64,000 bases of DNA from Ignavibacteria bacterium (GCA_026416955.1 JAOAEE010000008.1:90608-154607); one strand, 5' to 3'; numbered from the stretch's first letter, positions 31,856 through 56,675 are shown. Translations and numbers: made by a program. Notes: a model not told the origin generated them from the letters alone.

Positions 31856-31945
31856 ATATCATTCCATAAAAAGTATTATAACGAAAACAAAAACTATTTT
31901 TAGTTAAGTTAAAAATAAAATGAAATTCAAATAAAAATATTGTAA

Positions 31946-33823: not shown

Positions 33824-34313
33824 GTAATTTTAAAATTCTTTGGTAAAGGTATTCCTCGTCTCCTGTTGCGTAACCATTATGTTCCCAAACTATTTCGCCT
33901 TTTGAGTTAATAAGGAAGGAATGTGGCGGGTTATTAACATTCATTGCACGACGGAAATCACCGTTTTCATCTAAGTATATTTCAAATTTCCAATTTCGTC
34001 CTTTCACAAATGGTGCGACTTTTTTTGAATTTCGGACATCATCAATCGATACAGCAATTATTTTAATCCCAGTTTCTTGTTGCCATTTTTCGTACACTTC
34101 GTGAATGTTGTTCAATTCCATAATGCAGGGTTTGCACCAAGTAGCCCAAAAATTGATGACAAAAGGTTTTCCTTCGTTGTTAAATGTTTTTGTTTCTACT
34201 GTTTCTCCCTTGATGTTCTTTACTTTTACATTAGGTATTGTTCTATTTTCTTTTGCGAAACAGATAGAAATTGCAACAAACAAAAGTAACAAACCTATCT
34301 TTTTCATTTTCAC
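33771..34313 (-). CDS. TlpA/ResA-like thiol:disulfide oxidoreductase
   Basis: 180 aa with a signal peptide and the thioredoxin motif WATWCKPC. Confidence 0.7.
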   Translation of the reverse strand: MKMKKIGLLLLFVAISICFAKENRTIPNVKVKNIKGETVETKTFNNEGKPFVINFWATWCKPCIMELNNIHEVYEKWQQETGIKIIAVSIDDVRNSKKVAPFVKGRNWKFEIYLDENGDFRRAMNVNNPPHSFLINSKGEIVWEHNGYATGDEEYLYQRILKLLEEEGKESKENPKQINE

Positions 34314-34373
34314 TTAAAATTTTGTAAAAAAATCATTATTTTAGTTTTTTAAAGAACAAATTTAAGAAGAAAT

Positions 34374-35057
34374 ATGAAAAGACTTATTGTTTTATTTATT
34401 CTGATTGTTTTTATCCCAATTATCCTATTTGCAAAAAGTATAGAAATTGTTTCTGGTGAATTTCAAGTTAATACTTCTCCAAATATTGACGAGGTTAAAG
34501 CACATTGTGTTTTTAAGAATGTTTCCCAACAGGAGATTAGTGTTAAACTTAAGATAAAGCTAATTCAAGCCACAGAAGGTTTAGATGTTGCTTTTTGTTG
34601 GGGTCCAGTTTGTTATCCACCTTTAACCCTTGGTGAATTTCGTGAACCAAGCGATGCTATCTCTCTACTCCCAGGGCAAACAAGTGGACCCAACGAGTTT
34701 TATTTGACATTTTCTCCTAATGGTTACCAAGGTGAAGCTATTGTCGAGGCTATTCTTTATGTAAAAGATAATCCCGAGGATTCATTAAATTTAGTTTTTC
34801 GTCTATCTACAGTTTTGGGTGTACCTCATTCTAAATTCGATAGCCAAATTCTTGCTGTATCGGTAACTGGTGACTATTTCACTTTAGAAAAATTTGGGTT
34901 TACTCCTGGTACAATTTTTGTTTATACTATTGATGGTAAACTCTTATACAAATCTTTTATTTTTGAATTATTAAATATTTCATCTTTTCCTAAGGGGTTA
35001 TATTTAATTAGACAATTGGAACCAAATATAAAGACAATTCTTGTCAATAAGTTATAA
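34374..35057 (+). CDS. hypothetical secreted protein with putative T9SS C-terminal sorting domain
   Basis: 227 aa with a signal peptide (LIVLFILIVFIPIILFA). The C-terminus (GTIFVYTIDGKLLYKSFIFELLNISSFPKGLYLIRQ) resembles the Por secretion CTD. Confidence 0.45.
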   Translation: MKRLIVLFILIVFIPIILFAKSIEIVSGEFQVNTSPNIDEVKAHCVFKNVSQQEISVKLKIKLIQATEGLDVAFCWGPVCYPPLTLGEFREPSDAISLLPGQTSGPNEFYLTFSPNGYQGEAIVEAILYVKDNPEDSLNLVFRLSTVLGVPHSKFDSQILAVSVTGDYFTLEKFGFTPGTIFVYTIDGKLLYKSFIFELLNISSFPKGLYLIRQLEPNIKTILVNKL

Positions 35058-35127: not shown

Positions 35128-38100
35128 ATGATAGTTTATGATTTAGTCCTAAAATTATCATTACTTGTAACTCTTGCTGTTCTTTCGGGATTTATTGATA
35201 GATTTTGGCCTCGTAAGACACTTATTGGGAAAATATTCCAAGGTATACTATTTGGTTTTACTTCAATAGTTGGAATGATATTTCCGTTTGAACTTGCTCA
35301 AGGTTTGATTTTTGATGGAAGAACAATTATTATTAGTTTATCTACTTTGTTTTTTGGGCCTATTTCAGGTGGAATAGCTGCATTAATGTCCTTTGTATAC
35401 CGCACTTATGTTGGTGGCGTGGGATTACCTATGGGACTTGCAACTATTGTTGAAGCATTTATTGTTGGTTTATATTTCTACAGAATTAAGGAGAGAAGGG
35501 ACATTTTCTGGCTTAACACTTTAAGATTATATTCTTTTGGTTTTATTGTACATATTATTATGGTACTTTTAGTTTTTATGCTTCCTTCTAAATATGCTAA
35601 AAGTGTCTGGGATGAGGTTGCTTTAACAATAATTTCAGTTTATCCAGTGGTTTCTTTGTTAATTGGTAAAATCCTTCTTGACCAAGAAATATCATCAAGA
35701 TATTTAAAAGATTTAATTAGAAGAGAATCTTTGTATAGAACCACTTTATATTCCATTGGTGATGCAATAATTACAACTGATGCTAATGGATTTATTCATA
35801 ATATGAACTCTGTGGCCGAGGCACTTACTGGTTGGACAGAGAAAAATGCGAGAGGTAGGGAAATCAACCAAGTTTTTAGAATTGTTAATGAGTTTACTTT
35901 AAAAGAAGCAGAAAATCCTGTTGAACGAGTTCTTCGAGAAGGAAAAGTAGTTGGTCTTGCAAACCATACTGTTCTTATTTCCCGTGATGGTAGAAAAATA
36001 CCAATTGCAGATAGTGGAGCTCCTATTAAAGATGAAAATGGAAACATTATAGGTGTAGTTTTGGTGTTTCGGGACCAAACTAAAGAGCGTGAATATTTAA
36101 GAAAAATTGAAGAGCAAGAAAAAAGATATCGTCAATTTGTTCTATCAAGTTCTGATGGAATATGGAGATTTGATATTGATACTCCAATAAACATTAACTT
36201 ACCCATAGAAGAACAAATAAAATTAATTTTTCAAGGTGGCTATCTTGCGGAATGTAACGATGCATATGCAAAAATGTATGGTTTTGAAAAAGCAGAGGAT
36301 ATTGTCGGTATTCGTTTGATAGATGTTTTAAAACCAGAAGACCAGGAAAATATTGAATATCTTACTAACTTTATTAAAAATGGTTATCGTCTGACTGGAG
36401 GAATTTCCAAAGAATATGATAAATATGGGAATGTATTGTATATTGAAAATAACTTAGTTGGAATAATTGAAGATGGGTATTTAATTCGTGCTTGGGGGAC
36501 ACAGAAAAATATTACTGAAAAATATTTCCTTGAACTTTCGTTAAAAGAAAGTGAAGAGAAGTTTCGCCTTCTGTCCGAAGCATCGTTGGTGGGTATCTAC
36601 TTAATTCAAGATTATAAATTTATTTATGTTAACCAAGCCTTAGCAAATGTATTTGGTTATGAAATTGATGAAATAGTCAATAAGCTTGGTCCTTTGGATT
36701 TAACTCATCCAGATTACCGTCCAATAGTAATTGAGAACATAAACAAAAGAATTTCTGGCGAAATTGAATCGATTAATTATTCATTTAAAGCAGTAAAGAA
36801 AGATGGTTCTACAATTTTCATTGAAGTTTTTGGGAAAAGAATTGAATTTCGTGGAAAACCCGCCATTATTGGGACATTGATGGATATTACTGAAAAACTT
36901 CGTCTCGAAGAGGAAAACCGTATCCGAAATTTACAATTAGAAAGTACTTTGGAAAATACTCCAAATGTTGCTATTCAGTTTTATAATATCAAAGGTGAAG
37001 TTCTCTATTGGAACAAAGCCTCGGAAACAGTTTACGGTTGGACTAAAGATGAAGCACTTGGGAAGACACTGGACCAACTTATGTTAACCAAAGAGGAAAC
37101 AGCAAAATTTTTATCTGTTCTACAAGAAGTTTATTCAACTGGAAATCCTGTTGGTCCAAATGAATGGAAAGTAAAGAGAAAAGATGGTAGTGAAGCTTGG
37201 ATTTTAAGTTCTATTTTTGCTATTCCTTCCAAAGTTAACGAAAAAATTATAGTTTGTGCTAACGTTGATATCACAGAACGAAAAAATGTTGAGATCGCTC
37301 TTAAAGAACAAAATGATTTATTCCAAACACTTATTAATACTTTGGAAGCTGCAATTTTACTATATAGAGGTAAAGATATTGTATTTTGTAATGATGCAAC
37401 ATCTAAAATAACCGGTTATTCACTTGAAGAATTATATTCTATTCCTATATGGGATTTAGTGCATCCAGACCAGAGAGAAAAAGTGAAAAACATTGTCCTT
37501 GCAAGATTCAGAAACGAAGAAGTCCCAAATCGTTACGAAATTAAAATACTCAAGAAAGATGGTTCTACTGGTTGGGTAGATTATTCTGTAGGTATGATAA
37601 AATGGAAAGGAGAATTGACTGCCATTGGTACAGCAATTGACATTACTGAAAGGAAACTTAATGAAGAGATAATACAAATTCAGTATAATATTGCGGATGC
37701 TTTAGTAAAGCAAAAATCTCTTTATAAGTTTTTCGAGGTTGTACGAAAAGAACTTTCGAAAGTTTTGGATACTAAGAATCTTTTTGTTGCTTTTTATGAT
37801 GATGAGAAAGATGAACTTTATAGTCCCTTCGAGTGGGATGAAAAGATGGACGGACCTACAAGATGGAGTGCGAAAAAATCGTTGACTGGGAAAGTAATTA
37901 AAGAAAAAAGAAGTATTCTTTTAAAAAAGGAGGAAATTCAAAAGGAAATAGAAGATGGTCAAATAGAACTTATTGGTTCTTTGGCTGAATCTTGGCTTGG
38001 TGTTCCTTTAATTGTAGAAAATAGAGCATATGGAGCACTGGTAGTACAAAGTTATGATAATCCTAATTCTTTTGATGAGAGAAGTGTTCGTTTGATGGAG

Positions 38101-39702
38101 ATAATAGCTTCCCAACTTTCAACATATATTATCCAAAAGATGCAAACTGATGAATTAACAAAGTTGTCACTAGCCATTTCAAAAAGCCAAGTGGGTGTTG
38201 CAATTACTGATGTCAATGGGATTATTGAATTTGTGAACCCTAAAATGTGTGAAATAACAGGTTATTCTTCGGATGAACTTATTGGAAAAAAAATGAGTAT
38301 TTTAAAATCTGGATATCATACAAATGACTTTTATGCCAATATGTGGTCCACAATACTAAGTGGTAAAGATTGGTCTGGTGAATTATTAAACAAAAAGAAG
38401 GATGGACAATTGTACTGGGAAAAAACTTTGATTTCCCCTATCTTCAATGAATTTGGAAAAATACAACATTTTGTTTCAATAAAAGAAGATATTACTGAGC
38501 AAAAGAAACTTATCAATGAACTGATACAAGCAAAAGAGAAAGCACTTGAAAGTGAAAAGTTGAAAACTGCTTTTCTTGCAAATCTTAGCCACGAGGTTCG
38601 CACTCCTTTAAATGGGCTTATGGGGTTTGCACAAATTTTGGAAACACAAGATCTTTCCAATCAAGAGGTGAAGAGATTTGCTAATATTATAATTAAAAAA
38701 GCGAATGAACTCCTCTCCCTTTTTAACGACATACTTGATTTGTCAATGATAGAAACTGGGCAACTTAGGATTAGTCCAAAAAGTGTGAAATTAAACAGCA
38801 TTCTTTATGATGTCTATTCATCTTTCCTTGTAGAGGATAAAATAAAAAATAAGGAAATAGAATTTAGAATAGGTAAATTATTACCAGAAGACTTTGAAAT
38901 TGTTACCGACCCGATAAGATTAAAGCAAGTATTATATAATCTGGTAAACAATGCAATAAAATTTACAAAAAGAGGATTTGTAGAATTTGGAGCTGTTAAA
39001 GATAAAAATAATACAATTCAATTCTATGTGAAAGATACTGGGATTGGTATTGCGAAAGAAAAGTTTGATTACATATTTGAAAGATTCCAGCAAATTGATA
39101 CAGATTTCTTACGAAGGGAATATCAAGGAGCTGGAATTGGTTTACCACTTTGCAAAGGATTAGTTAAGTTATTGGGTGGTGACATTTGGCTAGAATCCCA
39201 ACTCGGGGAAGGTTCAACCTTTTACTTTACAATATCATCATTAAGTAGTATTGAAAAAGAAACATTAACCAAAGAAAAGTTTTCTTTCAAATTTGACAAA
39301 ATTCAGTTTGAAGAGGAGATTACTATTTTAATTGCAGAAGATGATTATGTAAATTTCGTGGTATTGGAAAAAATGTTAAGTAAAAATTACAATTGCGAAG
39401 TGTTACACGCTAATACTGGTAAAGAGGCTATTGAGTTTGTCAATAAGAGAAAAGATATTAACATTATTCTGCTTGATATTCGTATGCCAATAGTAGACGG
39501 ATATAGTGCTTTTAAAGAAATTAAGAAAATAAATCCCAGTATTCCAATAATTGCTGTGACTGCATATTCATATTCAGATGATAAGAGGAAAATTGTGGAA
39601 ATGGGTTTTGATGATTATGTTTCAAAGCCTTATGATTTTGAAGAAATAATTGAAAAAATAAATAGAGCGATTTTGAAAACAAAGACAAGTCAAATGGAAT
39701 AA
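35128..39702 (+). CDS. hybrid sensor histidine kinase/response regulator with 5TMR-LytS-type membrane domain, multiple PAS domains and a GAF domain
   Basis: 1524 aa. N-terminal 5TM LytS-YhcK-type sensor (FGPISGGIAALMSFVYRTYVGGVGLPMG). About 6 PAS/PAC repeats (e.g. IGDAIITTDANGFIHNMN). A GAF domain. HisKA (ANLSHEVRTPLNGLMGF). HATPase_c (NLVNNAIKFT...DTGIGI...GAGIGL). C-terminal REC (ILIAEDDYVN...LLDIRMPIVDG). Confidence 0.8.
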   Translation: MIVYDLVLKLSLLVTLAVLSGFIDRFWPRKTLIGKIFQGILFGFTSIVGMIFPFELAQGLIFDGRTIIISLSTLFFGPISGGIAALMSFVYRTYVGGVGLPMGLATIVEAFIVGLYFYRIKERRDIFWLNTLRLYSFGFIVHIIMVLLVFMLPSKYAKSVWDEVALTIISVYPVVSLLIGKILLDQEISSRYLKDLIRRESLYRTTLYSIGDAIITTDANGFIHNMNSVAEALTGWTEKNARGREINQVFRIVNEFTLKEAENPVERVLREGKVVGLANHTVLISRDGRKIPIADSGAPIKDENGNIIGVVLVFRDQTKEREYLRKIEEQEKRYRQFVLSSSDGIWRFDIDTPININLPIEEQIKLIFQGGYLAECNDAYAKMYGFEKAEDIVGIRLIDVLKPEDQENIEYLTNFIKNGYRLTGGISKEYDKYGNVLYIENNLVGIIEDGYLIRAWGTQKNITEKYFLELSLKESEEKFRLLSEASLVGIYLIQDYKFIYVNQALANVFGYEIDEIVNKLGPLDLTHPDYRPIVIENINKRISGEIESINYSFKAVKKDGSTIFIEVFGKRIEFRGKPAIIGTLMDITEKLRLEEENRIRNLQLESTLENTPNVAIQFYNIKGEVLYWNKASETVYGWTKDEALGKTLDQLMLTKEETAKFLSVLQEVYSTGNPVGPNEWKVKRKDGSEAWILSSIFAIPSKVNEKIIVCANVDITERKNVEIALKEQNDLFQTLINTLEAAILLYRGKDIVFCNDATSKITGYSLEELYSIPIWDLVHPDQREKVKNIVLARFRNEEVPNRYEIKILKKDGSTGWVDYSVGMIKWKGELTAIGTAIDITERKLNEEIIQIQYNIADALVKQKSLYKFFEVVRKELSKVLDTKNLFVAFYDDEKDELYSPFEWDEKMDGPTRWSAKKSLTGKVIKEKRSILLKKEEIQKEIEDGQIELIGSLAESWLGVPLIVENRAYGALVVQSYDNPNSFDERSVRLMEIIASQLSTYIIQKMQTDELTKLSLAISKSQVGVAITDVNGIIEFVNPKMCEITGYSSDELIGKKMSILKSGYHTNDFYANMWSTILSGKDWSGELLNKKKDGQLYWEKTLISPIFNEFGKIQHFVSIKEDITEQKKLINELIQAKEKALESEKLKTAFLANLSHEVRTPLNGLMGFAQILETQDLSNQEVKRFANIIIKKANELLSLFNDILDLSMIETGQLRISPKSVKLNSILYDVYSSFLVEDKIKNKEIEFRIGKLLPEDFEIVTDPIRLKQVLYNLVNNAIKFTKRGFVEFGAVKDKNNTIQFYVKDTGIGIAKEKFDYIFERFQQIDTDFLRREYQGAGIGLPLCKGLVKLLGGDIWLESQLGEGSTFYFTISSLSSIEKETLTKEKFSFKFDKIQFEEEITILIAEDDYVNFVVLEKMLSKNYNCEVLHANTGKEAIEFVNKRKDINIILLDIRMPIVDGYSAFKEIKKINPSIPIIAVTAYSYSDDKRKIVEMGFDDYVSKPYDFEEIIEKINRAILKTKTSQME

Positions 39703-39703
39703 T

Positions 39704-42700
39704 TTAACTATTCAAGTTAATATCACATTGAAAGTCCTTGAAGGTTACTATGCAAGATTCTTCCAATAAATAACTAAGGAAATCTTTATAATTCATTGTG
39801 CTACTTAGAAGTGAAAAATTACCAAAAATTACTATGAATTCTCTTGAACGGGTTAAGGAAACATTCAACTTTCTGTCAATAACCTTTCCATTATCCATTT
39901 TGAGTAGGTTAGAGGAGAGAAGTATATCTTTATTTGAATTAAAAGGCAATGACAAAAAGATTATGTCTCGCTCGGAACCTTGAAATCTTTCAACGGTGTC
40001 GATAGTGACTTTTTGTCTTGCTTTAAAGCTTAGTTTTGAATAAATCTCGGCATTTTGTATTCTAAAGGGTGAAATAATTCCAAAGGTTTCATTAGTAATA
40101 ATACTTTCAAAGTTTTCAAAACATTCATTGATTAAACTGGAAATAATTTTTGCTTGAGAGATGTTTAATTTTCTCTTTTTTTCCAAAGGTAAATCAACAA
40201 ACAAAACCCTTTTATTTGCATTCGAATTCAATTTCTTTCCAATAAACTCGATAAGAATAATATTCTTTTCTTTTGATTGCCTAAATAATGGGGTTTTAAT
40301 CAATCCATCATAAAATATTCTATTAATTGGTTCTAAAACTAAAGGATGCATTCTTCCTTGGTTATTCAAAACTCCAATTGAAAAATTCCAATTCTTTATT
40401 CTATTATGATTTAAAAGAAATTCAAAATAAGACATTGACAATTGTGAGTAACCCAGTTTATTTAAATTTTCATTAGCATTAGAAAATTGTGAAGTTTGTA
40501 AAACTACAGCTGGAAGTTGTTTTTCGTCGCCAATTAGAATAAATTTTTCAACCTGAGTAAGTATACCGGCAAGATGTGGGAAAAGAAGTTGAGAAGCCTC
40601 GTCAACTATTGCTACATCAAATTTAATTAATTCAAAAATTTCGGGATTTGCTAGGAAAGAGTATGCAGTGCCAAGAAAAATCCTGCAATTAAGTATTTTT
40701 TCTTCAAGTTCATCAGTTTCTAATTCCTCTGACAAATTAGGTAAGAGATTTTCTTTTATTTCAGTTGATTCTTTCGTTCCAATTCGAATATAATGGTTCT
40801 GTAAATTTTCTTTATGTAATATGTCTGCAATTTCGTCTACTGCTCTGTTTGTATAAGTGCAAACAAGGATTTTATTCTCCGTTTGTTGAAAGTAAAATTT
40901 AAGAAGTTCCTTAACGACTATTCTTGTTTTTCCAGTTCCTGGGGGCCCAATGATTAAATAATATGGATAATATTCCAGAGCAGATTGAATAATCTCTTTG
41001 TAAGTATGTAAATTTTCTAAATTATCTATTTTGTATTTTCTTTCGGGTGGTTTTTTACCCAAGAGAAAAGAAATTTTTTCTTTGCTTTGAAGGAGAAAAT
41101 TAAACAACGAATGAAAAAGATATTTGGTATTGGAATCCAAATAATCTTCTTCAATAATCCATCCGTCCAATATCTCAAAAAGATTTAAAGAAGTAAACTT
41201 GTTTCTTAACGAGACCACTATAAAATCGGGTTCAATTTGTTTAATCACACCCTTTAACAGTTGAAAAGAGAGTTCATTTTTAATGTAATAGGGATGGTAA
41301 AGAATTATTGGGTCACCTTTGCGAAGAGAACAAAAGTTTAAATCCTTAAATTCCCTCTCGAAAAAAAGATGCTCTTTCGAGAAATCGGATTTGTCATTAA
41401 TTAACTTTAAGTTAGTTATTACATTTTCATATTCATTTTTATCTTCTATTGGCACATTCCATAAAGATGCTTGGGAAGGTCGGTTGTTGAGCACTTGTTC
41501 CCCTATCTTGCCAATAATGCTTTCATTTAGAACAAATCTAATGTATTCTTTAATTAAAAGACCTATTTCAGGTTCTTGTGAATTTAAAAGGTTCAAATAA
41601 TCTCCAAAAATAAAAGCGTTTTTTTGTTTGGTTAAATATTTTTCCAGCGTATCAAAAATTCCATAATTTCCTTTTGCTAAATTCATTTCAAGAAGATATA
41701 TCCAATTTCTCGTTTTAAGGAATTCTCTTTTAAGTTCATTGGTGCAATTTGCTTCTCGTAAAGGTTTTTCCTTGTCACGAGAGTATAGTATCATTGAGGA
41801 GCCAAATCTATTAGGAAGAGATGACCCCAAAAGAAGGTTGTAACCAATTGTCTGTGCATAATGTGAATACCACATTCCTATGGTTGTTTTGTTTCCTTTC
41901 CCAAAGCGTAATAAAACATTATTAGTAGGAAAATTTCCAGATTTCAACTCAATAATTGTTTTCCAATTTTTGTCTTGTGGGCTTTCCAAAAGTAAATCCA
42001 TCCTTCCAATAATTCCGAATTCAGCAGAGAAAAATGTAGGTTCTATTTGAAATTGGAATTTCTTGATTATTTCAAGAGCATAAAGCAAGGTTTGGTATTG
42101 TTCTTCAGCTTCTTTCCGGATATTTTTATCTAAGTCTTCAACTTTTTGTTTCAAGACCAAATAAGGTAGTATCTTTTTTGAAATTGCTTTTTTGAATATC
42201 TCTTGAAATGTCGGATTTTCTTCAATCAATAAATAATCAAAAATCTGATTGATTAAGTTACCCAAAAAAGTATAATAAGTTGTCTGTTTAGGAAAAAATT
42301 TGTTAATAAAGTATAGATAAGCATTTGAGCCATTTTTTGAAAAACATTGAGAAATATCAGTAATGTCGTATAAATAGTCGGGCTCAACGACAATTAAACT
42401 TTCTTCTACAGTTTCAAATTTATTTCTATCTTTTTTCGATAAAAACAAGCAATTCAAAGTATTTCCTTGGCTAATGCATTTGGGAATTTCTTCCCAGTAA
42501 TTGCTAAAATCTATTTCAATTTCAATATCTTCATAAAAAAACTCGATAGTACTATTTTCTTTGTTAATTTTTTTTGCAATGATTTTGTATAGACTAATTA
42601 ATTCACCATTGGAAAAGTAATCAAACTTAGTGTTTTCACTAATGGTATTGATTTTTTCTTCAAGTTGTGAAAAAATTTTAAGTTTTTCGGTTTTAAGAAA

Positions 42701-43036
42701 ATAAGAGATAATATCTGCGATAAACGAAATTACAATTAGTAGTTTGTTTTTCGAAATACTTTCCTTTTTTTTCCAAGATAAATTAGAATGGACAAAAAGA
42801 ATTTTCTTTTTTATTTCGTCGCTAATTTTGAAGTTGTTAATTAAAAAAGAAATTCTTGAAAAGTTCGTAGGGAAATACTGCTTTTGGTTTTGTAAGAGAA
42901 AATAAATTAACTCTAAGAATAAAGTATAAATTTCCTTAACAAGATTATTTTTTAATTTACGATGGGAAATGCTGTTTTTTTCGACTTTGTTTAATATCTC
43001 TATAAGTTCATCAAAGAAACTTTCTGCATCGAGCAT
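39704..43036 (-). CDS. PD-(D/E)xK nuclease / Upf1-Dna2-like SF1 helicase fusion protein (Nhi/Dna2-like)
   Basis: 1110 aa. RecB/Cas4-type nuclease motifs around aa 330-420 (SAEFGIIGRMDLL; IIELKSG; QTIGY = QxxxY). SF1B helicase motifs are I GPPGTGKT, Ia LVCTYTNRAVDEI, II IVDEASQ, III ILIGDEKQLPAV, IV NQGRMHPLV...FYDG, V FGIISPFRIQ and VI TVERFQGSERDIIFLS. The ATG sits 1 nt after the recJ stop. Confidence 0.75.
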   Translation of the reverse strand: MLDAESFFDELIEILNKVEKNSISHRKLKNNLVKEIYTLFLELIYFLLQNQKQYFPTNFSRISFLINNFKISDEIKKKILFVHSNLSWKKKESISKNKLLIVISFIADIISYFLKTEKLKIFSQLEEKINTISENTKFDYFSNGELISLYKIIAKKINKENSTIEFFYEDIEIEIDFSNYWEEIPKCISQGNTLNCLFLSKKDRNKFETVEESLIVVEPDYLYDITDISQCFSKNGSNAYLYFINKFFPKQTTYYTFLGNLINQIFDYLLIEENPTFQEIFKKAISKKILPYLVLKQKVEDLDKNIRKEAEEQYQTLLYALEIIKKFQFQIEPTFFSAEFGIIGRMDLLLESPQDKNWKTIIELKSGNFPTNNVLLRFGKGNKTTIGMWYSHYAQTIGYNLLLGSSLPNRFGSSMILYSRDKEKPLREANCTNELKREFLKTRNWIYLLEMNLAKGNYGIFDTLEKYLTKQKNAFIFGDYLNLLNSQEPEIGLLIKEYIRFVLNESIIGKIGEQVLNNRPSQASLWNVPIEDKNEYENVITNLKLINDKSDFSKEHLFFEREFKDLNFCSLRKGDPIILYHPYYIKNELSFQLLKGVIKQIEPDFIVVSLRNKFTSLNLFEILDGWIIEEDYLDSNTKYLFHSLFNFLLQSKEKISFLLGKKPPERKYKIDNLENLHTYKEIIQSALEYYPYYLIIGPPGTGKTRIVVKELLKFYFQQTENKILVCTYTNRAVDEIADILHKENLQNHYIRIGTKESTEIKENLLPNLSEELETDELEEKILNCRIFLGTAYSFLANPEIFELIKFDVAIVDEASQLLFPHLAGILTQVEKFILIGDEKQLPAVVLQTSQFSNANENLNKLGYSQLSMSYFEFLLNHNRIKNWNFSIGVLNNQGRMHPLVLEPINRIFYDGLIKTPLFRQSKEKNIILIEFIGKKLNSNANKRVLFVDLPLEKKRKLNISQAKIISSLINECFENFESIITNETFGIISPFRIQNAEIYSKLSFKARQKVTIDTVERFQGSERDIIFLSLPFNSNKDILLSSNLLKMDNGKVIDRKLNVSLTRSREFIVIFGNFSLLSSTMNYKDFLSYLLEESCIVTFKDFQCDINLNS

Positions 43037-43037
43037 A

Positions 43038-44765
43038 TTAGGATTCGGGCATTACATCTTTCACACGAAGTTGATACTGGGTTTGATTGCCATTGTACAA
43101 TTCTTCGAGAACAAAGACCATAGAAAAGGACTTATTGCTATTTATGTGTTTTATTTTCTCTCCTAAATTTTGTCCTACCGCATCTATTTCGAAGAAAATA
43201 TTTCCATTATTGATATTAATTGGTTGGACTGCGCGGAATCTAAAACTGTTGGAACCAAACATTTTGATTCCATTTTTTGAATACACTCCTTTTGCCAAAA
43301 ATACGGGTTTATTATTTTCGAAACCGAAAGGAGCAAATTTTGTAAGAACTTGGAAGAACCTAGGGGAAAGTTCAGATAAATTAATTTCAGCATCAATAAT
43401 TAGTTCGGGAATAAGCATTTCGTTACTAATATGTTTATGGGCAACCTGGTCGAAACATTCTACGAATTCGTTCAAATTCTCTATTTTCAACGAAAGTCCC
43501 GCGGCGTGCTTATGTCCACCAAATTCTTCAAGTAAATTGTTGCATTCTTTCAAGGCAGAATGAATATCAAAATTCAAAATGCTTCTTGCAGAACCTTTTG
43601 CAAGATTATACATTGTTGTTAGTAAAATAGTAGGTAAATGATATTTATCCACTAATCTACTTGCTACAATACCAATTACACCAGCGTGCCAATCTTCTTT
43701 ATGTAGGATTAAACATCTTCGGTCGCTTTTTGATAAAAATTCTTCCGCCATTGGAATGGCTTCTTCAAAGGTTTTTTCGTCGTAATACCGACGCATTCGA
43801 TTGTCTTGCTCCAGTTGCTGTGCCATTTGGAAAGCAATTATTTCATCTTTTTGAATCATCATTTCGACGGACCGCATTGCATCTCCTAGACGTCCAGCGG
43901 CATTAATTAAAGGAGCAAGAGAGTATATGATATTAAAAGTAGTTAGGTTACCTGGTTTTAAATTGGTGCAATACAATAATCCTTTGATACCGGGCCGTGG
44001 CTTTTCATTTAAAAGTTTTAAACCAAAATAAGACAGGATTCTGTTCTCGTCAACCAAAGGAACCATATCGGCAGCCGAAGCAATAGCAACGTAATCGAGG
44101 TATTGGAAAGCATCCTCTTCTCGATTAAGTTTCTTTGAAATTGCTTGGATAAGTTTAAAAACAACACCACAAGCAGCCAAATGTTTAAATGGGTAAAGAC
44201 AATCTGGTAGTAGAGGGTCGAGAATTGCAAATGCTGGAGGCAATTCTGGTCCGGGCTCGTGATGGTCGCAAATTATTGTGTCTATACCAATACTATTAGC
44301 ATATTTAATTGCATCAACACTTGTAATTCCAACATCCACTGTAATTATTAGGTTAACACCTAGGTCCTTTAATTTTTTAACCGTTTGCGGAATGATACCA
44401 TAACCTTCTTGAAATCTGTCGGGAATGTGGTAAATTACATTACCACCAAGGCTTCTTAAAAATTCAATCAACATTGAAGTACTTGTAGTTCCATCGACAT
44501 CGTAATCTCCATGTACACAGATAGTTTCTTTTTTGTTTATAGCTGCCAAAGTTCTTTCGACAGCTTTATCCATATCCTTTAAAAGAAATGGGTCGTAAAG
44601 GTTATCAAGTGATGGATTGAAATAATCATTGACTTTTTTAGGAGTGTCAAGTCCTCTTGCAACCAAAACTTTAGCAAGACCCCGTGGAATCTTGTAAGAT
44701 TCCACTATGTTTTTAACAATTGACTCCTGAGGTTCACCCCTAAGTTTCCAATTATAAATGGACAT
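43038..44765 (-). CDS. recJ: single-stranded-DNA-specific exonuclease RecJ
   Basis: 575 aa with DHH motifs (ICVHGDYDVDGTTS...VDVGITSVD...ICDHHEP) and a DHHA1 region. Confidence 0.85.
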   Translation of the reverse strand: MSIYNWKLRGEPQESIVKNIVESYKIPRGLAKVLVARGLDTPKKVNDYFNPSLDNLYDPFLLKDMDKAVERTLAAINKKETICVHGDYDVDGTTSTSMLIEFLRSLGGNVIYHIPDRFQEGYGIIPQTVKKLKDLGVNLIITVDVGITSVDAIKYANSIGIDTIICDHHEPGPELPPAFAILDPLLPDCLYPFKHLAACGVVFKLIQAISKKLNREEDAFQYLDYVAIASAADMVPLVDENRILSYFGLKLLNEKPRPGIKGLLYCTNLKPGNLTTFNIIYSLAPLINAAGRLGDAMRSVEMMIQKDEIIAFQMAQQLEQDNRMRRYYDEKTFEEAIPMAEEFLSKSDRRCLILHKEDWHAGVIGIVASRLVDKYHLPTILLTTMYNLAKGSARSILNFDIHSALKECNNLLEEFGGHKHAAGLSLKIENLNEFVECFDQVAHKHISNEMLIPELIIDAEINLSELSPRFFQVLTKFAPFGFENNKPVFLAKGVYSKNGIKMFGSNSFRFRAVQPININNGNIFFEIDAVGQNLGEKIKHINSNKSFSMVFVLEELYNGNQTQYQLRVKDVMPES

Positions 44766-44850
44766 ATGTGTATCCTTATTTTCATAACTGGTACAAAATT
44801 ACAACATAAAACCGAAAAAAACAAATAATTTGTGAAAAAAAATTGTCACT

Positions 44851-44866
44851 GTGTAAAAATTTACAC
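44851..44866. promoter_or_regulatory. perfect 16-bp palindrome (candidate operator) in the divergent recJ / rsgA intergenic region
   Basis: GTGTAAA-AA-TTTACAC. The neighbouring TGTGA-N10-TCAC-like element (44831-44850) lies 48 nt upstream of the rsgA ATG. Confidence 0.4.
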
Positions 44867-44913
44867 ACTTTTTGTAATTTCACATTTATTTTTTATCAAA
44901 AATTCTAATTCTA

Positions 44914-45939
44914 ATGGATAATAATATTATTAATGGCGAGGATTTTGATGTAGAGCAACCCAAACTTGACCGAAATAAGAAGAAAAGGATATTATTAAAG
45001 AATGAAAAGAAAATTTCTGAGGTTGTAAATAGTGGGTTGGTTGTAACTTCAAAAGGTCGGTTTTATTTTGTGAAGAAAACAAATGATGATTCCAATTTTT
45101 TATATAAATGTGTAGTTTCTGGTTCAATCCAAATTAACCACAACCATAAAACAATTTTGACAGTAGGAGATAAATGTGAATTTATTGCCCCCAATGATAA
45201 CACAGATGGACAGGGTTTAGGTAGAATAACGAAAGTTGAAGAAAGAGAGACTTTCCTATTAAGAAAATCAATAAATGGAAATAATGAAGATGTTATTGCT
45301 GCTAATATGCACCAAGTTTTGGTGATTCTTGCAGCCGAAAATCCCAAATATAACTTACATATGCTGGACAAAATTCTAATCTCTTGTGAATATGGTTCTC
45401 TGAAGCCACTTATTTGCATAAATAAAATGGATTTGGTGGAAAGTGAAAAGGTTTTTGAGGATTTCAAAGAATATATTAGATTGGGATATCAAGTCTTTTA
45501 TATTTCTGCATTAAAATTGGAGAATTTAAAACAGGTTTACAAAGCAATTGAAAATAAAGTCACTCTTTTTATTGGTGTATCTGGTGTCGGCAAATCTACT
45601 TTAGTTAATTCACTTTTTGGTAAGGAAATCCAAAAGGTCGGGAAACTCGCCAAAAACTTACGGGGTCGGCACACAACTACCTCTTGTAATTATTTATTTT
45701 TGGACAATAACACAGCAATAATTGATTCACCAGGATTTAGAGAATTCGATTTATTTGGAATAACAAAAGAGGAACTCCCATTTTATTTCCCAGATTTTGA
45801 ACCATTTTATCGAAAGTGTAAATTTCAACCTTGTTCTCATACTCACGAACCAGACTGTGCAGTGAAAAAAGCTTTGCAAAAAGGAAAAATATCCAAAAGA
45901 AGGTATTTTTCTTATCTAACAATTTATGAAAATCTTTGA
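44914..45939 (+). CDS. rsgA: ribosome small-subunit-dependent GTPase A
   Basis: 341 aa with an N-terminal OB region, the circularly permuted GTPase motif (FIGVSGVGKSTLVNSL; DSPGFREF) and a C-terminal zinc knuckle (CKFQPCSHTHEPDCAV). Confidence 0.85.
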   Translation: MDNNIINGEDFDVEQPKLDRNKKKRILLKNEKKISEVVNSGLVVTSKGRFYFVKKTNDDSNFLYKCVVSGSIQINHNHKTILTVGDKCEFIAPNDNTDGQGLGRITKVEERETFLLRKSINGNNEDVIAANMHQVLVILAAENPKYNLHMLDKILISCEYGSLKPLICINKMDLVESEKVFEDFKEYIRLGYQVFYISALKLENLKQVYKAIENKVTLFIGVSGVGKSTLVNSLFGKEIQKVGKLAKNLRGRHTTTSCNYLFLDNNTAIIDSPGFREFDLFGITKEELPFYFPDFEPFYRKCKFQPCSHTHEPDCAVKKALQKGKISKRRYFSYLTIYENL

Positions 45940-45987
45940 AATAAATAGAATAATATTTATTATATTATCTTTTTATTTTGGATAACT

Positions 45988-48900
45988 TTGATGAAAAGAT
46001 GTCTCTATAAAATAACTTTTCTTTTCATTCTTTTATCTGTATCGAATCCTTTGTTTTCCCAATATTGGCAAAAAATACAGAATATTCCTAGCCCTTTTAG
46101 TAATAATTATTGGCTTGATGTTTATTTCCATCCATCTAATCCAAATTATGGATGGATATGTGGATTCAACGGGATGATAATTAGAACGACAGATGGTGGA
46201 AACACTTGGCGAGGTTCTACTGTAAATGCATACCATTTAGAAAGCATCCATTTTCCATCATTACAAATTGGGTATGTTTCTGGGGTTGAGGGAATTTTCA
46301 AATCTACCGATGGGGGAGCTACTTGGTTTGATGTTACTCCACCTAACACAAGAGATACTACTCATTTTTGGGGTTGCTACTTTTTAAATGAGAATTACGG
46401 GGTTTTGGTTGGGGATGGTTGTTTTGGGAGAAATCAGCATTTCTGGCTTACAACGGATGGGGGAAGCACTTGGTCTGTCTTTCTTGGTACTGAAAATAAT
46501 TCAGGTATGACAGATGCTCTGCTTTACCCAAATGGCTTAGGTTATGCAAGTAGTAGCGGTAGGATTTGGATAACAATTGATAGTGGTAGAACTTGGCAAA
46601 TATTTGCAACTTCCGGTCCTAATCTATGGCAAGAAGAAATTACTAACTATGGTTCTTCATTCCTTGTTCCTTATTCTGGAACAACTTGTACTGGTGGAGG
46701 GAATGATGGTGGAATGAGGTTTTCAACAAATAATGGTACAACTTGGAACAGTTTTCGAACTGGTGTTCCAATGTTTGGTACTTTTTTAATTGATTCACAA
46801 AAGGGTTGGGCTTGTGGTTATTACACTGAGGTTTATTATACATCTAATGGTGGTTCTAATTGGCAAAGAAGGAATTGTGGCATACAATCTGGAAATTTAG
46901 ATGACCTCTGGTTTATTAATGAGAATAATGGGTGGGTCGTTGGAGAAGGTGTATATAAGTTATCGAACCCAATTGGAGTAGTGAACAAACAATCCATAAA
47001 TTTTGCGGAATTTTGCGTTGGTTCAAAAAAGTTCGATACTCTTTGGGTAAAAAATTACAACTTCAATGATGTAACCATTTCACTCAATATTAATTCCCCT
47101 ACAAATGAATTTGAAATTTTTAGTCCCGGTACAACTGGTTATATTCAATCTTGCGACTCGATTAGGGTTATTGTTTCATTTGCTCCAAAGACACCAGGAA
47201 CAAAAAATGCAACTTTACAAATTCAATATCCATATCAAAATCCGATTACAGTTTCAATAACCGGAAGGGCAATAGTATCCACTGCAAAACTTATTGATAC
47301 CCTTATCACAGTTAATTATGCTAAATGTGGTTTTACATACCAAGTTGCTGCCAAAATAGGAGTGAATGATGTAGGAGAATTTGTTTCTACTATTATTCCA
47401 AGTAAAGAAAGTAGAGTTTTTAAACTAATTACACAATTACCACTACAATTAGACCCTTCTCGGAACAATCTATTAAATTTCGAAATAACACCATACGATA
47501 CTGGTTGGCAAGAGATAACATATCGAGTTAGATTTTCCCCGTGCGATACTTTCCAGGTTTTGAAAATCAAAGTTTATGCTTTTTCACCAATTATTAATTT
47601 AGATTCAGCCATAAATATTGATCTGCATTGCAAAATAACCCCTATTAAACTAAGAATATTCAACACTGGTAACGATACTTTATTTTTCCGAAAATTTTCT
47701 TTCAGCCCACCAACTAACAAATTAATTCTTCAAGGCTGGGCTTCGGGTAATAATTTGCTTTCAAATTTTATCCTTCCTGGCAGAGATGATACTCTATTGA
47801 TTTTGTTAGATACAAATAATTTAGGTGCTGTATCAACAACTTTAATAATAGAAAGCAACGACCTACGAACTGTAAATGGACAAAGGAATGTTGTTCACTT
47901 AAAAATTAATGTTAGGATTTTTGTTTCAAAAATTACTTTCCAACCCAAAATTGTTAATTTTGGAAAGGTTTGTGTAGGCGATACATCTTATAGAGAAGTA
48001 AATTTTCTTAATCAAGGGAATTTGGAAGAATTGTTTCTTACTTTTGTTCAAAGCAATAAACTCAATTTTTTTGTTAAAAATACTTTTCCGATAACCCTTA
48101 AAAGTTTCGATAGTTTAAAAATAAGAATTGCTTTTTCTCCCAATAGAATTGGTAAGTTTTCCGACACTTTGACTTTTGTTTCATTTAATTGTCGCGATAC
48201 ACTTAAAGTTATCTGCATAGGAGAAGGAGTAAAGGCTGGTATTAATGTTGTACCAAAGCAAATTATTTTAAGAATTCAAAGGGGACTGGGTTCTTCAATT
48301 TTATTTTCCTTTTTCCGAGTTGTTGACGATACTAATCGTTTAGAAAGTATTACTGTCTCAGATTCTCTTAATGAATTGGTGGCAAACATTAAATTGTTGA
48401 GAGATTCAACTTTGATGTCCTTTGACAGTTTGTTAATAGAGTTCAGTTTCTTTGCTTCAAAAAAAGGAAGGTATTTTGGTACAATTTATGTACATTTCAA
48501 AGGAAATTGCGATATTGTTATTTCTATTCCAGTTCAAATTGATGTTTTCGACAAAAATACAGTAATTGACCCTTTGCATATAGATTTCGATAGTATTATT
48601 TGTAAAAAGGAAATTAACAAACGCTCCATAGTCATAAAAAACATATCCGAAGCGAAAGATACTATTAAGAATATTGTACTTTTGCAAAAAACTGGTAGTT
48701 TTTCCTTTAATTCTTTACCTTCATTTCCACTAATATTACCACCAAACGATTCATTCGAAATACAAATTCTCTATTTCCCTTTACAAGAAGGTTACGACAC
48801 AGCAAATATTTTAATAGAGTTTGATGATACAACTCGTAATGTCCAGATAGTCGCAACTGGCTTCTTCGGGTATTCGAAGTTGTTGTCATCACCAAAATTG

Positions 48901-50199
48901 ATAGACTTTGGCAGCCTTGAATATTGCGAAATCCCAAAACAACTTAAATTTATAATTAAAAATATCGGTAATATTGAAGATACTATTCTTATCATCAAAA
49001 ATTTTTCAAGTTCCCTTTTTTCATTTGAAGTATCAAGATATTTTTTGCTTGGTAATTCATTGGATTCTTCGGAATTTCTAATCTCTTTATTAAAAAGCGA
49101 TAAATTAGGAGAGTTAATAGATACATTAGTTATTGGATTTTCCAAATGTCCACAAATGGATACAATTATCGTAAAGTGTTCAATTGTTTCACCAAAATAT
49201 GAAATATTACCAAAATTTATTGATTTAGGAAATTTATGGATTGGTACTCAAAAAAATGGAAATTTTAAAATCATTAACAAACATAATAATGGGATTGGTC
49301 TTAAGGTTGGTTCATATAATGTAAGCAAAAATTTTGGTTTTGATAGTAACTTTTCTATATATCTTGAACCTAATCAAACTAAGACTTTCGAATTTTATGT
49401 TATTGCTACTCAAGAAGGAGAGTATTGGGATACTATTTGTTTCGAAATTAGTTCCGTTTGTAAGTATTACGATTGTATAATTGTTCACTATAATATTCCG
49501 AAAGAACAATATAAAATGACATTCAAGGTAGGGAAATATATTGCAAAACCCGGAGATGATATTGAAATAAAAATAGAAAATCTAACCCCAAATAATTTTC
49601 TGAAACTTGATACTTTATTAATAGGGTTATCATACGATAAATGGTTGTTTTATCCATACTCTTTCAAAGTAGGAGATGTAAATTTTTCTGCTGAAACAAA
49701 TTTCGGCAAAATTTTCTTTAAGCTAAGCGAAAATTATTTAATCGACTTTTTAAATAGTGGCAAACCTATTTCTATTTTTGGTAAAGCCTTATATTCTGCT
49801 CCCGATACAACTTTATTAGAATTAAGTATTGTAGATTATTTCCCAAAGAAAAACATAGATATTTCCCTTTTTAATGGTCTTTTATACGTTTACCCAGTTT
49901 GCGAACCCATTGGTTCCTTAAAGATGGAACTAATACCCTCATTTAATGTGATTGGTTTTTATTATGATGTCAATGATTCATTTGTGGTTTTGATATCAAG
50001 TGAAAACCAACAAATTAGTATTTCTTTGTTCGATGTTTTAGGTAATTCTTTTGGAACAATTCAAACAAATTTGGAAAGAGGATTAAATATTATTGAATTA
50101 TCCAATACATTAAAAATATACCAACAAAATTCCGAATTCTTTCTTGTATTTTCGAATAGTTATTCAAAAAAAATTCTTTTTGTTCCTTTTTTAAGATAA
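45988..50199 (+). CDS. very large secreted T9SS cargo protein: Asp-box/BNR (Ycf48-like) beta-propeller, then about 8 Ig-like/ASH-like beta-sandwich domains, then putative T9SS CTD
   Basis: 1403 aa with a signal peptide. Six S/T-x-D-G-G-x-T-W repeats (TTDGGNTWRGS, STDGGATWFDV, TTDGGSTWSVF, TIDSGRTWQIF, STNNGTTWNSF, TSNGGSNWQRR). Repeated [IV]DFG.[VL]..[CG] beta-sandwich starts (INFAEFCVGSK, VNFGKVCVGDT, IDFGSLEYCEI, IDLGNLWIGT). The C-terminus is CTD-like. Confidence 0.6.
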   Translation: MMKRCLYKITFLFILLSVSNPLFSQYWQKIQNIPSPFSNNYWLDVYFHPSNPNYGWICGFNGMIIRTTDGGNTWRGSTVNAYHLESIHFPSLQIGYVSGVEGIFKSTDGGATWFDVTPPNTRDTTHFWGCYFLNENYGVLVGDGCFGRNQHFWLTTDGGSTWSVFLGTENNSGMTDALLYPNGLGYASSSGRIWITIDSGRTWQIFATSGPNLWQEEITNYGSSFLVPYSGTTCTGGGNDGGMRFSTNNGTTWNSFRTGVPMFGTFLIDSQKGWACGYYTEVYYTSNGGSNWQRRNCGIQSGNLDDLWFINENNGWVVGEGVYKLSNPIGVVNKQSINFAEFCVGSKKFDTLWVKNYNFNDVTISLNINSPTNEFEIFSPGTTGYIQSCDSIRVIVSFAPKTPGTKNATLQIQYPYQNPITVSITGRAIVSTAKLIDTLITVNYAKCGFTYQVAAKIGVNDVGEFVSTIIPSKESRVFKLITQLPLQLDPSRNNLLNFEITPYDTGWQEITYRVRFSPCDTFQVLKIKVYAFSPIINLDSAINIDLHCKITPIKLRIFNTGNDTLFFRKFSFSPPTNKLILQGWASGNNLLSNFILPGRDDTLLILLDTNNLGAVSTTLIIESNDLRTVNGQRNVVHLKINVRIFVSKITFQPKIVNFGKVCVGDTSYREVNFLNQGNLEELFLTFVQSNKLNFFVKNTFPITLKSFDSLKIRIAFSPNRIGKFSDTLTFVSFNCRDTLKVICIGEGVKAGINVVPKQIILRIQRGLGSSILFSFFRVVDDTNRLESITVSDSLNELVANIKLLRDSTLMSFDSLLIEFSFFASKKGRYFGTIYVHFKGNCDIVISIPVQIDVFDKNTVIDPLHIDFDSIICKKEINKRSIVIKNISEAKDTIKNIVLLQKTGSFSFNSLPSFPLILPPNDSFEIQILYFPLQEGYDTANILIEFDDTTRNVQIVATGFFGYSKLLSSPKLIDFGSLEYCEIPKQLKFIIKNIGNIEDTILIIKNFSSSLFSFEVSRYFLLGNSLDSSEFLISLLKSDKLGELIDTLVIGFSKCPQMDTIIVKCSIVSPKYEILPKFIDLGNLWIGTQKNGNFKIINKHNNGIGLKVGSYNVSKNFGFDSNFSIYLEPNQTKTFEFYVIATQEGEYWDTICFEISSVCKYYDCIIVHYNIPKEQYKMTFKVGKYIAKPGDDIEIKIENLTPNNFLKLDTLLIGLSYDKWLFYPYSFKVGDVNFSAETNFGKIFFKLSENYLIDFLNSGKPISIFGKALYSAPDTTLLELSIVDYFPKKNIDISLFNGLLYVYPVCEPIGSLKMELIPSFNVIGFYYDVNDSFVVLISSENQQISISLFDVLGNSFGTIQTNLERGLNIIELSNTLKIYQQNSEFFLVFSNSYSKKILFVPFLR

Positions 50200-50208
50200 T
50201 TTAATTTT

Positions 50209-52135: not shown

Positions 52136-52144
52136 TCCTTTCTC

Positions 52145-53062: not shown

Positions 53063-53078
53063 AGGACATTCCTTATAA

Positions 53079-53933: not shown

Positions 53934-53943
53934 CTTGCACCTT

Positions 53944-55620: not shown

Positions 55621-55665
55621 AATAAATTTACAAGTAAAAGTATTATAAAATTATGAAAACTTTTT

Positions 55666-55698
55666 TGAAATAAAAAACCTGTCAACAAGGTGACAGGT
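55666..55698 (-). terminator. rho-independent terminator downstream of rpmB
   Basis: Plus-strand inverted repeat ACCTGTCA-ACAAGG-TGACAGGT (55677-55698), preceded on the plus strand by an A-run. This is a T-run (UUUUUAUUUC) after the hairpin on the minus strand. Confidence 0.6.
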
Positions 55699-55729
55699 TG
55701 AAAATTTAAGTAGAGTACAACAAATGGAA

Positions 55730-55954: not shown

Positions 55955-56079
55955 TTTTTCACCATTAAAGAAAACAAAATTAATTATTTTTTCATTAATA
56001 GCAAAGCAGCAAATGAAAAAAACTGTTTATTTAAATTTGTATATTCTAAAAAATTTTCATAATTTTGTGTCGTTGAATA

Positions 56080-56169: not shown

Positions 56170-56192
56170 CTACATTTTATTAATCGATTGAA

Positions 56193-56621: not shown

Positions 56622-56675
56622 ACAATATTTTATTCTTTCTTTAGGTGAAAACAAAATTAGTATCATAGTTCATTT

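Follow-up and report, generated by a model that had tools for sequence, protein, structure and literature searches.

Does a single-chain nuclease-helicase whose gene directly follows recJ serve the repair of the cell's own DNA or the defence against invading DNA? The question is raised by a 64,000-nucleotide (nt) stretch of DNA from an Ignavibacteria bacterium (GCA_026416955.1, JAOAEE010000008.1:90608-154607), hereafter called the window, in which recJ and a gene encoding a 1110-residue protein lie one behind the other on the minus strand (Table 1). A first-pass annotation, made from the sequence alone, had described the product as a RecB-type nuclease joined to a Upf1/Dna2-like superfamily 1B (SF1B) helicase, and had offered two functions for it, an anti-phage/anti-plasmid effector like the staphylococcal protein Nhi or a repair enzyme partnered with RecJ. 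The protein was found to be a full-length homologue of Dna2, by sequence as well as by structure, which lacks one defining feature of the Dna2/AddB/Bad class, the iron-sulfur (Fe–S) "iron staple", and has an additional N-terminal domain with a HEPN fold. In the window's lineage, recJ and the Dna2-like gene are fixed, in this order, as a tightly spaced two-gene operon. With a probability of roughly 0.6, and by analogy with the characterised relatives, the protein would be a RecJ-partnered enzyme that processes 5' strands and 5' flaps in recombinational repair, in gap repair and at stalled forks.

The protein is homologous to Dna2 from the OB fold to the C-terminus

The helicase part was recognised by Pfam as AAA_11 (E 7e-26) and AAA_12 (E 1e-22), as had been expected, and the best match of the single sequence among the proteins of the PDB was mouse DNA2 (E 2e-20). 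A profile made from an alignment of 23 family members (A1) matched mouse DNA2 with an E-value of 1e-73 in one uninterrupted stretch, positions 212-1099 against DNA2 118-1044, which spans the nuclease, the stalk, the barrel and both helicase domains. The next matches of the same profile were helicase-only: Sen1 (8e-52), Ighmbp2 (4e-51) and Upf1 (about 1e-44). An AlphaFold2 model built on A1 had a mean predicted local distance difference test (pLDDT) value of 85.3 and a predicted template modelling (TM) score (pTM) of 0.82. Foldseek comparison of this model with the PDB gave Dna2 (5EAN_A) as top match with an E-value of 6.5e-42 and TM scores of 0.65/0.68 over 1088 alignment columns; Ighmbp2 and Upf1 ranked below Dna2 and matched the C-terminal part only. 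The order of domains is HEPN-fold bundle, OB fold, nuclease, stalk, barrel and helicase domains 1A and 2A, and from the OB fold onward this is the layout of Dna2. The proposed single-polypeptide nuclease-helicase of Dna2 architecture was thus borne out.

Nuclease and ATPase motifs are intact. The nuclease motifs GRMD (344-347), ELK (363-365) and QTIGY (395-399, a QxxxY motif) align to the active-site motifs of DNA2, and the LK-x-RNW helix is kept as well; among 177 family members, D347, E363, K365, Q395, Y399 and the Dna2-like "RN" (443-444) are 99-100% conserved. All helicase motifs are invariant, namely GPPGTGKT (697-704), DEAS (812-815), GDEKQLP (836-842), DTVERFQG (1013-1020) and R1063 in LTR (1061-1063). 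In the barrel/stalk region R572 and D575 (99% each) and W626 (96%) are conserved in the 177 members. The Pfam family PF08696 (Dna2) matched residues 179-312 with a borderline score of 22.1 bits at a cut-off of 22.4, and it is also annotated in many homologues.

In the Dna2 class, the 4Fe-4S iron staple is held by one cysteine in the N-terminal extension of the nuclease and by a CX2CX5C motif in its C-terminal extension. It is absent from every member checked: the whole window protein has only ten cysteines with no CX2CX5C triad among them, and a CxxCx(3-8)C pattern upstream of Walker A was found neither in the window protein nor in any of the members searched for it (0/53), so that the lack of an Fe–S cysteine cluster, seen before in the window protein, extends to these relatives. 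The DNA2 segment CKYCSQIGNC, with three of the four Fe–S ligands, is an insertion without counterpart in the alignment to the family profile. C231 is conserved in 79% of the family, in the motif "EPDYLxDxTxIxxCF", and lies near the first ligand of DNA2 ("PDxxISGTSxASSIRC"). To judge from this position, it may be what is left of the first cluster ligand, a relic of an iron staple whose other three ligands are gone.

The N-terminal region consists of a HEPN-like bundle and an OB fold

The N-terminal 320 or so residues had been taken for a region without recognisable family and for a candidate new sensor module. The former statement is only partly right: the borderline PF08696 match lies within the region, and the alignment of the family profile to DNA2 starts at residue 212. 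What had been seen as one new module reduces to a bundle of about 135 residues, an OB fold and the start of the Dna2 nuclease domain. Residues 1-133 form a four-helix up-down bundle of the HEPN fold and residues 146-217 an OB fold directly before the nuclease domain. Since the OB domain of mouse Dna2 (21-122) likewise directly precedes its nuclease (PMC4716839), the OB fold is part of the shared architecture. Within residues 1-215, F55 alone is at least 70% conserved in the 177 members.

The HEPN RNase motif Rx4-6H is not conserved among these members: the best column has Arg in 55%, the window protein has H83, and there is no paired His column. An active HEPN RNase was therefore rejected for both the window's clade and the family, and the bundle is unlikely to be an RNase. 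A role in docking, dimerisation or regulation would fit better, and, more speculatively, bundle and OB domain may be contact points for SSB, for RecJ or for self-association.

In the bundle of the distant members P0024, P0025, P0038 and P0043, a motif resembling FR-x2-AN-x3-H was observed (R-x7-H; R-x5-H in P0043), in A1 columns of about 85-110, which correspond to window residues 76-90. It is lost in the window's clade (KKILFVHSN). The motif could go back to an active HEPN site of an ancestor or have arisen by chance.

recJ and the Dna2-like gene form a conserved operon

The upstream gene is a genuine recJ. Its product exceeded the cut-off of the equivalog model TIGR00644 (515.2 bits versus 396.9) and has the domains DHH (PF01368), DHHA1 (PF02272) and RecJ_OB (PF17768). 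A single base separates the recJ stop codon TAA (43038-43040) from the ATG of the Dna2-like gene, as the first-pass annotation had noted. The annotated start is supported by the N-terminus itself, because M1 is invariant and "ML(D/E/N)" is conserved in the 23 homologues of alignment A1.

When loci were collected with the Dna2-like protein as anchor, recJ lay directly upstream on the same strand in the window, in L001, L003, L024, L053, L081, L082 and L101-L104 and on the contig of P0025. The recJ-linked Dna2-like proteins have 26-58% identity to the window protein. The two genes overlap by up to 17 nt or are separated by up to 105 nt, an overlap or a gap of at most a few bases being usual. The other flanking genes vary, and a pair that is kept over such divergence while its flanks change is the classic signature of a functional operon. 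In the reverse approach, 80 metagenomic loci were fetched with the window RecJ and the gene downstream of recJ was inspected. All 12 loci whose RecJ had at least 57% identity carry a Dna2-like gene directly after recJ, and so do three further loci with a RecJ of 50-53% identity; one group at 54-56% does not, and none of the loci with a RecJ of 47% identity or less has it (0 loci). From this distribution, the operon is fixed in the window's lineage and lineage-specific beyond. In the window, a DUF72 gene, a gene for a BNR/choice-of-anchor-D protein and rsgA are followed by the divergently oriented recJ and Dna2-like genes. The complete block is also present in L081 and L082, and in L101 except for the DUF72 gene, whose place lies beyond the end of the fetched stretch.

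In several relatives (L001, L081, L082, and also L101 and L103), the Dna2-like gene is followed on its own strand by open reading frames (ORFs) of about 240-247 codons without Pfam match, which have no counterpart in the window. Those of L001, L081 and L082 (about 11250-12060) were considered as a third operon gene and dropped; the products have no detectable homology to that of the ORF at the same position in L103 or to that of a 227-codon ORF in the window (34374..35057).

The family is large, chromosomal and apparently vertically inherited

A protein identical to that of the window is deposited as "MAG: DNA2/NAM7 family helicase [Ignavibacteria bacterium]", from a metagenome-assembled genome (MAG). 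Full-length homologues with 42-58% identity were found in Ignavibacteria and Kapaibacteria, and homologues with 24-35% identity in Saprospiraceae, Chitinophagales, Prevotella/Segatella, Bacteroides, Dysgonomonas, Proteiniphilum, Muribaculaceae, Paludibacteraceae and Cloacimonadota. The size of the family was estimated with residues 1-680 only, which excludes the helicase core, against 1.84 billion cluster representatives. There were 990 matches at E<=1e-3, 801 at 1e-10 and 348 at 1e-30, which corresponds to about 800-1000 clusters at 50% identity. Since nearly all of them are about 1100 residues long and many align from the first 50 residues, the family is large and architecturally uniform. 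In a neighbour-joining tree its members group broadly by taxonomy. With the N-terminal half as query, no match was obtained in 50,697 phage records and three in 72,556 plasmid records, all three in non-mobilizable Bacteroidales replicons, one of them of 1.77 Mb. In IMG/VR, only helicase-core matches were among the matches listed, which makes the viral absence only indicative.

The gene had been described as markedly AT- and Lys/Asn/Ile-rich, in keeping with horizontal acquisition. The bias is real: the G+C content is 0.288 versus a mean of 0.327 for the window's genes (n=38; z -1.46, fourth lowest) and 0.362 for recJ, and the fraction of K/N/I/F/Y is 0.407 versus 0.314 in RecJ. It is modest, however, and the G+C content at third codon positions (GC3) is typical (0.251 versus a window mean of 0.259, n=38, z -0.25), as is the distance in relative synonymous codon usage (RSCU) to the rest of the window (0.300 versus a mean of 0.354, n=38, z -0.67). 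The low G+C content thus results from the amino-acid composition at codon positions 1 and 2. Such a composition also occurs in other genes of the genome, as the gene of a TPR-repeat protein (53944-55620, minus strand) has the lowest G+C content of the window, 0.271, below that of the Dna2-like gene. Horizontal acquisition was rejected, because GC3 and RSCU are native, the flanking synteny is conserved, the tree broadly follows taxonomy and only codon positions 1 and 2 and the amino acids deviate. Such a pattern is expected if a protein under weak constraint drifts along with its AT-rich genome, and it is not that of foreign DNA; the gene is thus a maintenance gene of the chromosome with apparently vertical inheritance and no mobile gene of defence.

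In the open-access literature, no paper was found that describes a Dna2-like family of the Fibrobacterota-Chlorobiota-Bacteroidota (FCB) group or links Dna2-like proteins to Bacteroidetes or to recJ operons. The family, which here comprises Ignavibacteria/Kapaibacteria, Bacteroidota and Cloacimonadota, is apparently undescribed there.

Members in other clades lie next to repair and housekeeping genes

The neighbours of the Dna2-like gene outside the window's lineage bear on the choice between repair and defence. On the P0025 contig, mutL lies downstream of it; ogt/MGMT lies upstream in L026 (Segatella salivae) and L035, a gene for a UmuC-type Y-family polymerase 1 nt upstream in L079, the cluster dnaN-recF-dciA-gyrB upstream in L083 (a complete 2.4-Mb genome) and uvrA nearby in L104. 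In L085, recD2 overlaps the upstream end of the Dna2-like gene by 4 nt (4884-7004 and 7001-10285), and in L043, a Prevotella MAG, the gene of a second Upf1-like SF1B helicase of 651 residues does so by 4 nt as well (4451-6406 and 6403-9741). L043 and L085 thus each pair two 5'->3' SF1B motors in one operon. Other members stand amid plain housekeeping genes (gmk, nadD-like, greA). Neither restriction or methyltransferase genes nor genes for toxin-antitoxin systems, integrases or other defence functions were seen beside any member examined, the sole methyltransferase-like neighbour being the repair protein Ogt/MGMT. Around the operon itself, the scanned neighbours (25952-35057 and 43038-59813) included no integrase or defence gene and are all ordinary chromosomal genes.

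A probable role in 5'-end processing together with RecJ

RecJ is a processive 5'->3' exonuclease for single-stranded DNA (ssDNA) that requires an accessible 5' tail. An endonuclease with a motor of the Dna2 type can generate or clear such tails. Bad and Dna2 are 5'->3' motors on ssDNA with 5'-flap endonuclease activity (PMC7430649, PMC4716839), and resection of 5'-adducted breaks by eukaryotic DNA2 has been reported (PMC4705695). If the present protein works like these two, a free 5' ssDNA tail would thread through the nuclease tunnel, the SF1B motor would translocate 5'->3' behind the threaded end and the endonuclease would cut the 5' strand or flap. Clearance of 5' ends with structure, bound protein or a chemical block would result, which would feed or complement RecJ, and the settings to be expected would be recombinational repair, gap repair and the processing of stalled forks or flaps. 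Context and conserved operon favour this RecJ-partnered role, which was one of the two options of the first-pass annotation.

Several findings weigh against this explanation. Linkage to recJ is absent from L002, L004 and L039, from 65/80 of the RecJ-anchored loci and from every Bacteroidota or Cloacimonadota locus examined, and gene order is the one kind of evidence that suggests a partnership with RecJ, be it physical or functional. The HEPN fold, present here, is often found in defence and RNA-targeting proteins. In L001, the Dna2-like protein has 49% identity to that of the window, RecJ 82%; the former thus evolves about twice as fast, a rate that fits weakly constrained drift. Finally, the loop closing the nuclease tunnel of Dna2, AddB and Bad is held up by the Fe–S cluster, and these proteins become unstable when the cluster is lost (PMC4716839, PMC7430649); a tunnel-threading mechanism would here have to work without it.

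The strongest competitor is a replication enzyme for long Okazaki flaps or reversed forks which acts independently of RecJ, the adjacency to recJ then being co-regulation or a chance fusion in one lineage. We consider it unlikely. Eukaryotic Dna2 is reported to have these flap and fork roles (PMC6943134, PMC4347643), one member lies just downstream of dnaN-recF-dciA-gyrB, and most of the family, in Bacteroidota and Cloacimonadota, has no recJ neighbour. However, the recJ pair persists with tight spacing across 26-58% identity, and the genes that adjoin the Dna2-like gene elsewhere in the family serve repair (ogt, Y-family polymerase, mutL, recD2, uvrA) and not the replisome. The two roles are not mutually exclusive.

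Neighbourhoods of this kind also make improbable an effector that degrades invading phage or plasmid DNA, whether as a stand-alone protein like Nhi or as a restriction motor-nuclease like Bad. The helicase half does resemble Mokosh MkoA (179 bits) and the PLuB and ProA helicase models, the N-terminal bundle has a fold common in defence proteins, and the gene is AT-rich and evolves faster than recJ. In addition, defence by a nuclease-helicase in one polypeptide has a precedent in Nhi (bioRxiv 10.1101/776245), and Bad always adjoins a Type III-like methyltransferase (PMC7430649). But the PADLOC and NCBIfam matches cover the generic barrel/helicase part only and are far below the curated cut-offs (PLuB_AAA 157 bits versus 999, ProA 43.5 versus 1500; MkoA residues 767-1091 only), so that no full-length match at threshold to Mokosh MkoA, PLuB or ProA was obtained, and residues 1-690, searched in three pieces, had no PADLOC match at all. 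Defence is further opposed by the missing PF09848/DUF2075 domain, by the HEPN-like domain without conserved Rx4-6H, by housekeeping synteny, native codon usage and a tree that follows taxonomy, and by the absence of the family from phage records and its near absence from plasmids. Within the window's lineage, a gene that is conserved, apparently vertical and adjacent to recJ in 12/12 loci speaks against the anti-phage/anti-plasmid option of the first-pass annotation.

An enzyme directed at RNA or RNA-DNA hybrids, as in R-loop or primer removal or in RNA surveillance, is hardly credible. In its favour, most helicases of the Upf1/Ighmbp2/Sen1 branch, to which the core belongs, have RNA as substrate, and the N-terminal domain adopts the HEPN fold, in which some distant members keep the FR-x2-AN-x3-H-like motif. 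Against it, both sequence and whole-chain structure place the protein nearest to Dna2, which acts on DNA, and not to Upf1; the nuclease belongs to the DNA-cleaving RecB/AddB/Dna2 type, RecJ as the operon partner is an exonuclease for ssDNA, and no catalytic dyad is conserved in the HEPN-like domain of the window's clade or the family.

RecJ-partnered 5'-end processing could be taken one step further. More tentatively, RecJ and the Dna2-like protein might constitute an undescribed two-protein machine for 5'-end resection, the main or only one in Ignavibacteria/Kapaibacteria, in which the Fe–S-free motor-endonuclease would open and clear the 5' ends, blocked ones included, and hand the strand to RecJ while the HEPN/OB part docks RecJ or SSB. 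Dna2 has long been regarded as a eukaryotic (and archaeal) enzyme. If such a machine existed, the Dna2 architecture would be an old bacterial solution to repair, and the iron staple would be dispensable for a threading nuclease-helicase. Should the repair role itself hold, the family would provide a natural test of what the Fe–S cluster contributes to nucleases of the Dna2 and AddB type, and a bacterial counterpart of Dna2-dependent end resection that can be studied in culturable Prevotella or Bacteroides; proteins now called "DNA2/NAM7 family helicase" or "AAA domain-containing protein" would receive a functional name. The family, which includes gut and oral Bacteroidales and is repeatedly tied to repair genes, most strikingly to recJ, need no longer be counted among candidates for defence. 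It represents neither a system of defence nor a machine of an altogether new category.

Coordinates and other features of the window

The positions of the two genes and of the protein parts are given in Table 1. The divergent recJ/rsgA intergenic region was assigned as promoter region by position only, because a promoter and terminator scan of 39300-45100 gave no more sites than shuffled sequence.

Table 1 Features of the recJ/Dna2-like operon in window coordinates
Feature	Position	Strand	Basis
recJ, 575 residues, first operon gene	43038..44765	minus	TIGR00644, domains, junction, conserved adjacency
Dna2-like nuclease-helicase gene, 1110 residues plus stop	39704..43036	minus	ORF list and translation
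HEPN-fold helical bundle, residues 1-133, probably non-catalytic	42638..43036	minus	
OB-fold domain, residues 146-217, directly before the nuclease (position of the Dna2 OB)	42386..42601	minus	
Dna2/AddB-type PD-(D/E)xK nuclease domain, residues 212-455	41672..42403	minus	Conservation in 177 members and alignment to DNA2 118-363
C231 codon	42344-42346	minus	
Nuclease catalytic residues	D347 41996-41998; E363/K365 41942-41950; Q395/Y399 41840-41854	minus	
Helical stalk (456-535) and beta-barrel (536-632), residues 456-632	41141..41671	minus	Secondary structure of the model, DNA2 alignment
SF1B helicase domains 1A and 2A, residues 680-1100	39737..40999	minus	AAA_11/AAA_12, PDB matches, invariant motifs
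Helicase motifs	Walker A 40925-40948; DEAS 40592-40603; motif III 40511-40531; motif V 39977-40000; motif VI 39848-39871	minus	
Divergent recJ/rsgA intergenic region, presumed operon promoter region	44766..44913		Position only

At its other end, the stop codon of the Dna2-like gene lies one base from that of a convergent gene (35128..39702, plus strand) for a hybrid histidine kinase of 1524 residues with PAS and GAF domains. With a single base between the stops at 39702 and 39704, neither strand has space for a terminator between the two genes, and no terminator-like site was found at this junction in the scan of 39300-45100. The kinase combines a 5TM-LYT membrane module with five or more PAS domains, one GAF domain, HisKA/HATPase and, at the C-terminus, a receiver. 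In L081 and L082 its position is occupied by an ORF for about 240 residues and relA/spoT, and since the relatives carry other genes there, the kinase marks a local rearrangement. On the other side of the operon, the BNR/Sortilin-like protein with choice-of-anchor D and Ig-like domains comprises 1403 residues (45988-50199, plus strand) and is followed by the DUF72 gene (50209-50982, plus strand); both are syntenic with rsgA, recJ and the Dna2-like gene across several Ignavibacteria/Kapaibacteria genomes (L081, L082, L101). The only tRNA gene of the window, tRNA-Ser with anticodon GCT (56080-56170, plus strand), is found some 500 bp away from the gene of an RtcB RNA ligase (56676-58106, minus strand).

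Comparison with known systems

RecQ-RecJ of the RecF pathway and AddAB/RecBCD also combine a helicase motor with degradation of the 5' strand, which gives 3' tails, and RecJ is the exonuclease in common with the former; among bacterial proteins, the nuclease of AddB comes structurally closest to that of Dna2 (PMC4716839). In contrast to these systems, the motor here is a 5'->3' SF1B helicase fused to its own endonuclease and not a 3'->5' RecQ; a second subunit is absent, and nothing points to Chi recognition.

Nhi (SERP2475) of Staphylococcus epidermidis, to which the architecture had been likened, shares with the present protein a PD-(D/E)xK nuclease N-terminal to an SF1 helicase in one polypeptide. 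It is a protein of 606 residues whose helicase is of the DUF2075/PF09848 (Dda/Schlafen-like) kind, whose nuclease is HsdR-like and whose unwinding is bipolar, and it is plasmid-borne and located in defence neighbourhoods (bioRxiv 10.1101/776245). The present protein, with 1110 residues, has AAA_11/AAA_12 with stalk and barrel, a Dna2-type nuclease and a chromosomal repair context; PF09848 gave no match at E<=0.01, and the N-terminal half has no PADLOC match. Apart from the three non-mobilizable Bacteroidales replicons among the plasmid records, neither a location on plasmids or among defence genes nor a patchy, horizontal spread was found. An Nhi-like membership was therefore rejected. No PADLOC match carried the name Nhi, the presence of an Nhi model in PADLOC-DB 2.0.0 being unconfirmed.

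With Dna2, as seen in the mouse structures 5EAN, 5EAW and 5EAX, the protein has in common the OB fold, the PD-(D/E)xK nuclease with N- and C-terminal helical extensions, the stalk, the barrel and the SF1B domains 1A and 2A, and also the catalytic D/E-K/Q-Y residues and the LK-x-RNW helix. The sequence identity to 5EAN is only 17-18%. Dna2 has a 4Fe-4S cluster and the present family has none, and the short RPA-binding alpha1 helix at the N-terminus of Dna2 contrasts with a HEPN-fold bundle of about 133 residues here. Dna2 is eukaryotic and its partners are RecQ-type helicases (BLM, WRN) and RPA, whereas the present host is a bacterium in which the gene forms an operon with recJ.

To our knowledge, Bad of Geobacillus stearothermophilus is the only characterised bacterial relative; it is rare and Fe–S-bearing, and its function is not known. 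Like the present protein, Bad is a bacterial single chain of a RecB-type nuclease and an SF1B helicase. It is a 5'->3' ssDNA translocase/helicase and an ssDNA and 5'-flap endonuclease that likely threads a free 5' end, and bacterial DNA2-like proteins were reported to be infrequent and scattered, occurring in Firmicutes, in some Proteobacteria and, as a second class, in Mycobacteria; Bacteroidetes are unmentioned (PMC7430649). Judged by this published description, Bad is set apart from the present family by an Fe–S cluster on four cysteines, by a nuclease at the extreme N-terminus (D150) and by a constant Type III-like methyltransferase neighbour, which suggests restriction; such an adjacency was not found at any member examined of the present family, whose genes adjoin repair and housekeeping genes. 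By analogy, Bad is at present the best biochemical model for the Dna2-like protein encoded next to recJ.

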